Position numbers: made by a program. A stretch of DNA of 7,314 bases from a virus (taxonomy: Duplodnaviria > Heunggongvirae > Uroviricota > Caudoviricetes), in IMG/VR virus record IMGVR_UViG_2534682255_000012. One strand, written 5' to 3'. This document shows positions 3,001 to 7,314 of this stretch, one piece after another (the first letter of the stretch is position 1; every line of letters starts with the position of its first letter).

Positions 3001-6000
3001 GAAAGATGGTCGCAGAATTGAATATACGGCGGCTTCTCTGGATGAGCTTAACCGGGCGATCAATGATGCGGAGTCGGTACTGGGGACAACCCGGCGTCGC
3101 CGTCGTCCGCTGGGAGTGAGGTTATGAAACGAACGCCTGTCCTGATTGATGTGAACGGCGTTCCGCTTCGTGAGAGTCTCAGCTACAACGGGGGCGGTGC
3201 AGGATTTGGCGGGCAAATGGCGGAGTGGTTGCCACCGGCGCAGAGTGCCGATGCGGCCCTGCTGCCCGCGTTGCGTCTGGGGAATGCCCGGGCAGATGAT
3301 CTGGTGCGCAATAACGGAATAGCGGCCAATGCGGTGGCACTGCATAAGGATCACATTGTCGGGCATATGTTTCTTATCAGCTACCGTCCGAACTGGCGCT
3401 GGCTGGGGATGCGGGAGACCGCAGCAAAAAGCTTTGTCGATGAGGTGGAGGCGGCCTGGTCGGAATACGCCGAAGGGATGTCTGGCGAGATCGACGTGGA
3501 AGGAAAACGCACGTTCACGGAATTTATCCGTGAAGGTGTGGGCGTTCATGCGTTTAACGGCGAAATCTTTGTGCAGCCGGTCTGGGATACGGAAACCACG
3601 CAGTTATTCCGTACGCGTTTTAAAGCCGTGAGTCCGAAACGGGTGGACACGCCAGGACACGGTATGGGGAACCGTTTTCTGCGGGCCGGGGTGGAGGTCG
3701 ATCGATATGGCCGTGCCGTTGCGTACCATATCTGTGAGGATGATTTTCCTCGCTCCGGGAGTGGACGATGGGAACGGATCCCGCGTGAACTTCCCACCGG
3801 GCGTCCGGCCATGCTGCATATTTTCGAGCCGGTGGAGGACGGGCAGACCCGTGGGGCCAACCAGTTTTACAGCGTCATGGAACGGCTGAAGATGCTCGAT
3901 TCCCTGCAGGCAACACAGCTTCAGTCGGCCATTGTGAAAGCCATGTATGCAGCGACGATTGAAAGTGACCTTGATACCGAAAAGGCCTTTGAATATATCG
4001 CCGGTGCGCCGCAGGGGCAGAAGGATAATCCGCTTATTAATATTCTGGAGAAGTTCTCCAGCTGGTATGACACGAATAACGTGACGCTGGGTGGTGTCAA
4101 AATTCCGCACCTTTTCCCCGGGGATGATCTGAAACTACAGACTGCGCAGGATTCAGACAATGGATTTTCGGCGCTTGAACAGGCGCTGCTGCGGTATATC
4201 GCCGCCGGTCTTGGCGTTTCCTACGAACAGTTGTCCCGTGATTACTCGAAGGTCAGTTATTCAAGTGCCAGGGCCTCTGCCAATGAGTCGTGGCGCTATT
4301 TTATGGGGCGGCGAAAATTTATTGCGGCCCGGCTGGCCACGCAGATGTTTTCCTACTGGCTGGAAGAGGCACTTCTTCGGGGGATTATCCGTCCGCCACG
4401 GGCGCGTTTTGATTTTTATCAGGCGCGATCAGCCTGGTCACGGGCAGAGTGGATTGGTGCCGGAAGAATGGCCATTGACGGGCTCAAGGAGGTTCAGGAA
4501 TCGGTGATGCGCATTGAGGCCGGACTGAGCACGTATGAGAAAGAGCCGGCGCTGATGGGCGAGGATTATCAGGACATTTTCCGCCAGCAGGTCAGGGAAT
4601 CTGCAGAGCGGCAAAAAGCCGGACTCTCACGTCCGGTGTGGATAGCGCAGGCGTATCAGCAGCAGATAGCGGAGAGTCGCAGGCCGGAAGAGGAGACAAC
4701 ACCCCGTGAGACGTAATCTTTCACACATTATTGCCGCAGCATTCAATGAACCGCTGCTTCTGGAGCCCGCCTATGCGCGGGTTTTCTTTTGCGCGCTCGG
4801 GCGCGAGATGGGGGCAGCAAGTCTTTCGGTACCACAGCAGCAGGTACAGCTTGATGCTCCCGGAATGCTGGCTGAAACGGACGAGTACATGGCCGGAGGT
4901 AAACGACCGGCCCGTGTTTACCGGGTGGTGAACGGTATTGCTGTACTGCCGGTGACCGGCACGCTGGTGCACCGGCTGGGGGGTATGCGGCCATTTTCCG
5001 GAATGACAGGCTATGACGGCATTGTCGCCTGTCTTCAGCAGGCAATGGCGGATAGCCAGGTGCGGGGCGTACTGCTGGACATTGACAGTCCGGGCGGGCA
5101 GGCCGCCGGCGCGTTTGACTGCGCTGACATGATTTACCGCCTCCGTCAGCAGAAGCCGGTCTGGGCACTGTGCAATGACACGGCCTGTTCTGCAGCCATG
5201 CTGCTGGCGTCGGCCTGCTCCCGACGGCTGGTTACCCAGACATCCCGTATCGGCTCCATTGGCGTGATGATGAGCCATGTCAGCTATGCCGGTCATCTGG
5301 CGCAGGCCGGTGTGGATATCACGCTGATTTACTCAGGGGCGCACAAGGTGGATGGCAATCAGTTTGAAGCCTTACCGGCAGAGGTTCGCCAGAACATGCA
5401 GCAGCGCATTGATGCGGCGCGCCGGATGTTTGCCGAAAAAGTGGCCATGTTTACCGGTCTGTCTGTTGATGCCGTCACGGGAACAGAGGCCGCCGTTTTT
5501 GAAGGTCAGTCCGGCATTGATGCCGGGCTGGCGGATGAATTAGTCAATGCGTCGGATGCCATCAGTGTGATGGCCACGGCGCTGAACAGTAATGTCAGAG
5601 GAGGCACTATGCCGCAATTAACTGCAACGGAAGCCGCCGCGCAGGAGAACCAGCGAGTGATGGGGATCCTGACATGCCAGGAAGCGAAAGGACGTGAACA
5701 GCTTGCCACGATGCTGGCAGGACAACAGGGCATGAGCGTTGAACAGGCCCGGGCGATTCTGGCCGCGGCGGCACCGCAGCAGCCGGTGGCATCCACGCAG
5801 AGTGAAGCCGATCGCATTATGGCGTGTGAAGAAGCGAACGGTCGTGAACAACTGGCGGCAACGCTGGCGGCGATGCCGGAGATGACGGTGGAAAAAGCCC
5901 GCCCGATCCTGGCTGCTTCACCGCAGGCGGATGCCGGACCCTCACTCCGTGATCAGATCATGGCACTGGATGAGGCAAAAGGGGCTGAGGCGCAGGCTGA

Positions 6001-7314
6001 ACAGCTGGCTGCCTGCCCGGGAATGACTGTGGAGAGCGCCCGGGCTGTGCTGGCTGCGGGATCAGGTAAGGCAGAACCGGTCTCTGCATCCACAACCGCC
6101 CTGTTTGAACGCATCATGGCGAACCATTCACCGGCTGCGGTACAGGGTGGCGTGCCACAGACGTCAGCAGACGGTGATGCGGACGTGAAAATGCTCATGG
6201 CCATGCCATGAAGTCAGTGCTGACCATCAACAGGAGGTTTTTACAATATGGTAACGAAAAACATCACTGAACAGCGTGCGGAAGTACGTATTTTTGCCGG
6301 TAATGATCCGGCTCATACCGCCACAGGCAGCAGCGGGATTTCCTCGGCAACACCGGCACTGACGCCCCTGATGCTGGATGAAGCCAGCGGGAAACTGGTG
6401 GTCTGGGACGGACAGAAAGCCGGTAGTGCAGTTGGCATACTGGTACTGCCGCTTGAAGGCACAGAGACGGTACTGACCTATTACAAGTCGGGGACCTTTG
6501 CGACGGAGGCAATCCGCTGGCCTGAAAGTGTGGATGAACACAAAAAGGCAAATGCCTTTGCCGGCAGTGCCCTGAGTCACGCGGCGCTGCCGTAACACGT
6601 TATCAGGCCACCGCGGTGGCCTGACTGATTTCTGAATGAAAGGAACTGATTTATGGGATTGTTTACGACCCGCCAGTTACTCGGTTATACCGAACAAAAA
6701 GTGAAATTTCGTGCGCTGTTTCTGGAGCTGTTTTTCCGCCGTACGGTGAATTTCCATACCGAAGAGGTGATGCTGGACAAAATTACCGGAAAAACGCCGG
6801 TGGCGGCCTATGTCTCCCCGGTTGTTGAAGGAAAAGTGCTGCGTCATCGCGGTGGTGAAACCCGCGTGTTACGTCCGGGCTACGTCAAGCCGAAACACGA
6901 ATTCCCCTGGAGCCGGTAAAAGGAGCCGGTACCACCCTGTGGGTTTATAACGGTCAGGGTGACGCCTATGCAAACCCGTTGTCAGACGATGACTGGCAGC
7001 GACTGGCTAAGGTGAAGGATCTGACGCCGGGCGAGATGACGGCAGAATCCTACGATGATAACTACCTGGATGATGAAGACGCGGACTGGACCGCGACCGG
7101 GCAGGGGCAGAAATCTGCAGGTGATACCAGTTTTACGCTGGCCTGGAAACCGGGAGAGGAAGGCCAGAAAGGGCTTATAGGCTGGTTTGAAAGCGGCGAT
7201 GTCCGGGCCTATAAAATCCGTTTTCCGAATGGCACGGTGGATGTGTTTCGTGGCTGGGTCAGCAGTATCGGTAAGGCCGTGACGGCGAAAGAAGTGATCA
7301 CCCGCACGGTGAAA

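Follow-up and report, generated by a model that had tools for sequence, protein, structure and literature searches.

Does the scaffold-coding end of a lambda-type prohead protease gene carry a genuinely repeated module, and if so, how old is the repetition and what might it contribute to head assembly? The question is raised by a stretch of viral DNA of 7,314 nucleotides (Caudoviricetes; IMG/VR record IMGVR_UViG_2534682255_000012; hereafter the window), which encodes a homologue of lambda gpC of 501 amino acids (aa) that combines an S49 prohead protease with a Nu3-type scaffold part. The original prediction, made from the sequence alone, held that the scaffold part contains about four copies of a helical motif of about 50 aa, and that these copies are old and maintained rather than the result of slippage. 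The comparisons presented here indicate that the motif represents a real and old triplication that is already known, namely the Tri1, Tri, and Tri3 boxes previously annotated in phage 21.

The scaffold part was cut at the four anchors of the predicted motif (positions 5654, 5813, 5954, and 6110), which are all in frame and read RVM, RIM, QIM, and RIM, and the pieces were compared by Smith-Waterman alignment with 2000 composition-preserving shuffles each. Pairwise scores of the three full units are 87–101, compared with a shuffle mean of ~26 (z = 11–15), and none of the 2000 shuffles reaches the observed score; the recurrence is significant for these three units. The scaffold part is laid out as follows:

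5645–5779, plus strand: unit 1 (aa 314–358), ENQRVMGILTCQEAKGREQLATMLAGQQGMSVEQARAILAAAAPQ; from the repeat alignment and the Tri1 box of GenBank record M81255
5780–5803, plus strand: variable linker between units 1 and 2, QPVASTQS; low predicted local distance difference test score (pLDDT), without helix
5804–5926, plus strand: unit 2 (aa 367–407), EADRIMACEEANGREQLAATLAAMPEMTVEKARPILAASPQ; from the repeat alignment and the 'Tri box' of M81255
5927–5944, plus strand: variable linker between units 2 and 3, ADAGPS; low pairwise identity
5945–6070, plus strand: unit 3 (aa 414–455), LRDQIMALDEAKGAEAQAEQLAACPGMTVESARAVLAAGSGK; from the repeat alignment and the Tri3 box of M81255
6071–6208, plus strand: C-terminal tail (aa 456–501), with FERIM at 6104–6118 and the terminal KMLMAMP at 6188–6208

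The units are 41–45 aa long, are separated by linkers of 6–8 aa, and recur with a period of 47–53 aa. They share a core of ~42 aa with the pattern (R/Q)(I/V)M..EAkGRe.LA..LA..pgMtvE.A..iLAA. Unit 1 contains an insert of three residues (GIL) that is also present in the single unit of lambda. Unit 3 is the most divergent, in that two nearly invariant residues of the EAKGRExLA core, an Arg and a Leu, are missing from it; in the E. coli phage 21 lineage, this unit reads GAEAQAE where all other surveyed units have GRE.LA. Of the roughly four copies originally proposed, the three full ones are borne out by the alignment scores, but the fourth, partial copy is not, because its match is limited to ERIMA and its score lies below the shuffle mean (z < 0). 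Since the same stretch reads FEHFMA in phage 21 and LDRLMQ in lambda, it is the start of the C-terminal tail found throughout the family and does not belong to the expansion. A tail of ~45 aa behind a conserved C-terminal module is typical of lambda-type gpC/Nu3 proteins and is found also here, with the module present three times.

It is extremely improbable that the recurrence arose by chance in a low-complexity region rich in Ala, Glu, and Gln, or that it reflects recent slippage or an assembly artefact. The region is compositionally biased, and the supposed fourth copy is no better than chance, but chance recurrence of the three full units is excluded by the shuffling results. The units are only 56–69% identical at the DNA level, which agrees with the predicted divergence of the copies, and this set of three is also present in phage 21, in 77 of the closest 80 IMG/VR loci (the other three have two units), and in E. 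albertii, Shigella, Trabulsiella, and Salmonella, which excludes a recent artefact.

The triplication is on record for phage 21. GenBank record M81255 ('Bacteriophage 21 head gene operon'), which we take to be that of Smith & Feiss (Gene 1993), comprises gene 5 (501 aa) and, nested in it, a gene 6 that has a separate ribosome-binding site, and lists three repeat_region features in gene 6, a 'Tri1 box', a 'Tri box', and a 'Tri3 box', each annotated as 'function unknown; putative'. With a constant offset of +134, these boxes (5542–5645, 5682–5792, and 5823–5936) map to window positions 5676–5779, 5816–5926, and 5957–6070 and coincide with units 1–3. Window positions 5400–6250 are 98% identical to phage 21. 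In gene 6, nucleotide identity is 98.5% without any indels, and five of the 200 residues differ; phage 21 gp5 and the gpC of the window share 491 of 501 residues (ten differences). Genes 5 and 6 of phage 21 match the window also in gene order, length (501 and 200 aa), internal start, and ribosome-binding site, and another phage 21 record (OL657228) labels the pair 'capsid protease/scaffolding protein' and 'scaffolding protein'. Unlike in phage 21, the copy in the window resides in a defective prophage of E. coli O157:H7, in which gene A is frameshifted and the region from E to U is deleted. A literature search, whose reach did not extend to the original phage 21 head-gene paper, found no discussion of the Tri boxes, and the scaffold is not mentioned in the announcement of the phage 21 genome.

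How old is the triplication? The units of the window are 84, 75, and 59% identical to their positional counterparts in a Salmonella homologue but only 45–56% identical to one another. Because the units match their positional counterparts better than each other, the triplication is older than the split between the E. coli and Salmonella lineages, and the module was triplicated before the lineages of E. coli (phage 21), Trabulsiella, and Salmonella (Gifsy-1-like) separated. Salmonella phage Gifsy-1 and related alleles from Salmonella and Trabulsiella possess three units that are positional orthologues of those in the window, and D-type and E-type head genes follow in these loci as they do in the phage 21 type. 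The Gifsy-1-type alleles differ from the window in their scaffold part, which is only 50–60% identical, and in their unit 3, which retains the canonical GRE.LA core that was lost in the E. coli lineage.

The copies are also maintained. When eight diverse proteins with three units are compared in pairs, mean identity is 0.63–0.79 in the units, 0.20–0.38 in the linkers, and 0.30 in the tail; the linker regions at aa 356–366 (11 aa) and aa 406–413 (8 aa) have values of 0.38 and 0.34. The ratio of nonsynonymous to synonymous substitution rates (dN/dS), determined by the Nei-Gojobori method in comparisons of the window with the alleles of E. albertii and Trabulsiella and with a second E. coli allele, is 0.05–0.19 for the units and 0.10–0.22 for the protease domain, but 0.24–0.52 for the linkers and 0.29–0.58 for the tail. 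Constraint weakens from unit 1 (0.04–0.07) over unit 2 (0.06–0.22) to unit 3 (0.05–0.33). The GAEAQ form of unit 3 is fixed in the E. coli lineage and is still subject to purifying selection within E. coli (dN/dS 0.05). Judging from these substitution ratios, all three copies are kept by purifying selection. The positional orthology of the units in Salmonella and their low dN/dS, together with the presence of three units in 77 of 80 relatives, support the view of the original prediction that the array is old and maintained, not a product of slippage.

Whether three copies are the rule or an expansion depends on the wider family. A unit profile built from 20 units (window and homologues) was searched against 1.84 billion representative proteins, of which 1097 match at E ≤ 0.001. 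The counts per lineage were taken from this search and from the IMG/VR loci instead of a search for Nu3 homologues, which gave mostly gene fragments; a pattern scan of genome contigs recovered six loci only, because the patterns were too specific. Among the best 150 representatives, 144 were newly fetched, and 135 of these have one unit, seven have two, and two have three. Among the fusion proteins of at least 380 aa in this set, 55 of 57 have a single unit. In the phage collection, 115 records match the Nu3 of the window, but only 20 cover at least 80% of it, namely the Gifsy-1 record and 19 E. coli records that belong to the phage 21 group, and about 95 of the 115 have one unit; matches with a single unit only include lambda, 434, HK629/630, phi80, HK225, mEp237, N15, DE3, and the Stx1a phages. 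A single copy is thus the norm in the family, and the three copies of the phage 21 type are an expansion relative to lambda and most relatives.

The comparison with lambda is instructive. As had been predicted, lambda gpC (439 aa) holds a single full copy, and the gpC of the window exceeds it by about 60 aa (62 aa by our count). The two proteins are 59% identical overall and share the S49 domain, a Shine-Dalgarno sequence and ATG at the aligned position, the conserved unit, and the synteny of B, C, D, and E. The tails of both end in a hydrophobic (L/M)L..(P/V), which reads LLNTPV in lambda; the tail after the last unit measures ~40–55 aa across the family, with a median of 46–49 aa. Lambda differs from the window in having only one unit and, ahead of it, a spacer of 36 aa that the gpC of the window lacks.

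The array is still changing by unequal crossing-over, which yields alleles with two and with four copies. Units 1 and 2 are fused in a 2-unit allele (P0020), and units 2–4 of a 4-unit allele (P0027) are 80–85% identical to each other. Proteins with two units are found independently in distant lineages (P0104, P0105, P0145, and P0160). A protein of 382 aa (P0099) is nearly identical to the gpC of the window except for an in-frame deletion from the end of the protease domain to the middle of unit 2, which leaves ~1.5 units. The locus of the 4-unit allele (L092; contig ABNWJB010000046.1, GCA_032727965.1) encodes a lambda-type head module (D, E, FI, and FII), and the genes that follow this module have GPW_gp25 and Baseplate_J domains, so that a lambda-like head is joined to a baseplate of the contractile-tail type.

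The units are part of a gene with the following features:

4706–6211, plus strand: gpC homologue (phage 21 gene 5; 501 aa), S49 prohead protease plus scaffold part
5141–5584, plus strand: S49 peptidase domain (aa 146–293); PF01343 Peptidase_S49, E = 2.8e-35
5597–5604, plus strand: Shine-Dalgarno sequence AGAGGAGG of the nested scaffold gene, from the sequence
5609–6211, plus strand: nested in-frame open reading frame (ORF) of the Nu3-type scaffold (homologue of phage 21 gene 6; 200 aa)

The gpC gene starts with a GTG that overlaps the end of the portal gene and is located between the portal gene and the D-type and E-type genes, an order that agrees with the annotation of phage 21 and lambda. 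Its S49 (SppA-like) domain lies within the N-terminal two thirds of the protein, as expected of lambda-type gpC/Nu3 proteins. The match to PF01343 exceeds the gathering score, aa 77–290 match the SppA structures 3rst and 4kwb (E about 5e-16), and the protein matches the head maturation protease family phrog_53 (E = 1e-227).

The original prediction had placed an internal start at position 5609. This ATG is the annotated start of gene 6 in both phage 21 records; M81255 gives a ribosome-binding site at the equivalent position (5464–5468), and lambda has AGGAGGG ahead of the ATG at 5342, its counterpart at the aligned position. Database proteins of 199–200 aa align to the nested product from residue 1, and a representative of 195 aa (P0093) begins with MSQLSAAEA at the aligned position of the nested start. 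In agreement with the prediction of a Nu3-type scaffold region at 5609–6211, we infer from the conserved Shine-Dalgarno sequence and ATG that the scaffold part is both the C-terminus of the protease and a separate Nu3-type protein of 200 aa. The RefSeq annotation of lambda places the start of nu3 at 5132 (201 aa), compared with the Shine-Dalgarno sequence and ATG at 5342 that are conserved with phage 21 and the window; a start at 5342 would yield 131 aa, and a database protein of this form exists (P0133, 131 aa). Record OL657228 also lists two pattern matches to a 'CII binding site' (ttgynnnnnnttgy) on the opposite strand inside gene 6, which correspond to window positions 5614–5627 (at the start of Nu3) and 5848–5861 (in unit 2) on the minus strand.

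Structure prediction of the repeat region alone, as suggested with the original prediction, places helices in each unit and irregular structure between them. The AlphaFold2 model of the whole 200-aa product (pLDDT 55, predicted template modelling score 0.23) is usable for secondary structure only, whereas a single unit modelled with 20 aligned units is compact and consists of three short helices (pLDDT 81). We infer from these models that each unit may fold independently as a small three-helix domain, with flexible linkers rich in Pro, Ala, and Gln in between. Among PHROGs, the unit falls into families of head scaffolding, capsid assembly, and head maturation protease proteins, and a Foldseek search of BFVD recovered the same module only in further S49 prohead proteases, among them one from a cyanophage (template modelling score 0.85–0.89).

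Known domains gave no comparable match. A Foldseek search of the PDB with the single-unit model returned no matching solved structure (best E = 3.9), and sequence and profile searches of the PDB recovered only the S49 domain, along with chance matches for the unit and for the lambda unit plus tail. One of these, chain Un of entry 9hqv ('AKGREALAE'), belongs to a Toxoplasma mitoribosome and was rejected as a relative of the unit. A P22-type helix-turn-helix coat-binding domain, or another helical domain of solved structure, was rejected because the fold and sequence searches of the PDB gave no significant match. Pfam returned only sub-threshold matches to helix-hairpin-helix and DUF families for the scaffold part; the helix-hairpin-helix match (PF00633) is confined to unit 3 and reaches 13–15 bits against a cut-off of 24 (E = 0.02–0.09), and this candidate was rejected.

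What might the module do? In the alignments, no other element of the scaffold part of this family is as well conserved as the module, which is apparently common to protease and scaffold. All inspected loci that extend downstream, be it with one, three, or four units, continue with a D-type decoration gene and then an E-type capsid gene (342–348 aa). Scaffolds with one, three, and four units are paired with capsid proteins that are colinear (341–342 aa, at most one gap position, 62–82% identity): lambda E and phage 21 gp7 are 62% identical with one gap position, and phage 21 gp7 and the capsid protein of the 4-unit locus are 82% identical without gaps. For lambda, interactions of Nu3 with E, with C, and with itself have been observed in two-hybrid tests of whole proteins, and Nu3 is required for portal incorporation (PMC3224144). 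The original prediction regarded this region as the part that contacts the capsid protein; neither the literature found nor the present computations support such a contact for the module, and the whole-protein yeast two-hybrid result for lambda Nu3 and E, in which no domain was mapped, is the sole evidence found on capsid contact.

The locus is a phage-21-type C/Nu3 allele with an ancient triplication, and on balance its module probably holds scaffold and protease in the E-type shell. The module would be an interaction element by which scaffold and protease are retained within the E-type capsid shell during assembly, and its binding partner would be the capsid protein, other scaffold chains, or both. 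A chain of the 21 type would then be trivalent, with three sites near the protease domain, and the lambda chain would have a single site, preceded by a longer spacer without structure; capsid geometry would be unchanged between the 1-unit and 3-unit types. In the prophage of the window, the gene would be an intact relic without a capsid gene to serve.

There are functional analogies to such an arrangement. In the herpesvirus UL26/UL26.5 system, protease and scaffold have a common C-terminus, through which both are directed to the interior of the procapsid, and in the scaffolding protein of phage P22, a small helix-turn-helix element at the C-terminus binds the coat protein. The likeness would be one of function only, as neither system shows any sequence or fold relation to the module, and we know of no tandem repetition of the shell-binding element in herpesvirus or P22 scaffolds.

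Several points weigh against a role of the module in shell binding. M81255 lists its function as unknown, and no experiment or structure that assigns one was found. The C-terminal tail could be the capsid-binding element, as it is in herpesvirus and P22 scaffolds. In the E. coli lineage, two core residues that are otherwise nearly invariant have been lost from unit 3, and the AlphaFold model of the 45-aa unit (20 sequences) is only moderately confident. Moreover, 2- and 4-unit alleles exist alongside colinear capsid proteins, and copy number may therefore matter little.

The last point leads to the possibility that the extra units serve mainly as length or spacer, with copy number being nearly neutral as long as the scaffold part measures ~130–250 aa. 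The 36-aa spacer that precedes the unit of lambda and is absent from the 21 type is in line with this idea, as is the variation among fusion proteins with a single unit, in which the start of the unit varies between about aa 325 and aa 454 and total length ranges from 412 to 547 aa. The latter range makes 501 aa an ordinary total length, and the variable length of the spacer ahead of the unit suggests that the array of the 21 type partly fills the place of the spacer. The coexistence of 2-, 3-, and 4-unit alleles with colinear capsid proteins points in the same direction. However, a spacer should show no constraint on its sequence. The dN/dS of the units resembles that of the protease domain and not that of the true linkers, and every unit keeps the core motif of the family and the predicted fold, which makes a mere spacer function unlikely.

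Alternatively, the module may be an element for self-association or for binding to portal or protease instead of capsid protein, of which three copies would raise the avidity or cross-linking between scaffold chains but not the capsid contacts. The interactions listed for lambda include Nu3-Nu3, Nu3-C, and Nu3-B, and dimerisation of Nu3 has been reported (PMC3224144); the module is also common to protease and scaffold, which must co-assemble. On the other hand, the lambda interactions are not domain-mapped, a two-hybrid interaction of Nu3 with E was reported as well (PMC3224144), and sequence by itself cannot separate this explanation from shell binding. We regard self-association as a possible, though somewhat doubtful, primary role.

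The module might also act as a portable valency unit of the scaffold, whose copy number (one to four, altered by unequal crossing-over) tunes the number of capsid subunits or partner scaffolds per chain and thereby the kinetics or fidelity of assembly, with the T=7 shell of the E type unchanged; this extension is tentative and, at present, rather doubtful. The related idea of the original prediction that a changed copy number could alter the stoichiometry of scaffold to capsid is neither supported nor excluded by the present results.

The importance of the finding is limited, as phage 21 records have documented the triplication for about thirty years and the present copy resides in a dead prophage. 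Nevertheless, phage scaffolds and proteases of this class are very widespread (1097 representative clusters match the module), the module is better conserved than any other part of them, and natural alleles with one, two, three, and four copies that are paired with nearly identical capsid proteins would provide a ready series for studying the role of the scaffold C-terminus in the assembly of lambda-like heads. Possibly new are the family-wide context, with one copy as the rule, and the natural series of one to four copies. To our knowledge, there is no prior report on the copy-number variation, the selection on every copy, or the missing solved structure beyond the annotation of phage 21.

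The surroundings of the gene conform to a lambda-type head operon in the order Nu1-A-W-B-C-D-E. Besides gpC, the six-frame list of ORFs comprises:

527–1036: Nu1
951–1292 and 1243–2937: terminase large subunit A, split into overlapping ORFs
2921–3127: W
3124–4716: portal B
6248–6595: D-type decoration gene
6653–6919: E-type major capsid gene, first 88 codons

The truncated E directly abuts a V-type major tail gene (window 6894–7314). The entire window is 100% identical to a chromosomal prophage present in many genomes of E. coli O157:H7, for which RefSeq flags A as 'frameshifted' (TW14359) and marks E as incomplete. The head genes from A through E are 96% identical to those of phage 21 and align up to window position 6903; the alignment restarts within gene V at 6894, a break equivalent to a deletion of ~2.5 kb. 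Relative to phage 21, the remainder of E, FI, FII, Z, U, and the first codons of V are missing. Because ten bases (6894–6903) align to either side of the E/V junction, the sequence suggests a microhomology-mediated deletion. With E truncated at codon 88 and A frameshifted, the prophage is evidently defective and unable to build heads, but the gpC gene itself is intact.

The window shows signs of mosaicism outside the head genes. No alignment to phage 21 exists for its first 1090 bases, which comprise the cos/Nu1 region and the beginning of A, and the V segment (window 6894–7313) is only 82% identical to phage 21, compared with 96% for A through E. In many O157:H7 genomes, Nu1 is interrupted by ISEc8, an element that is absent from the window.

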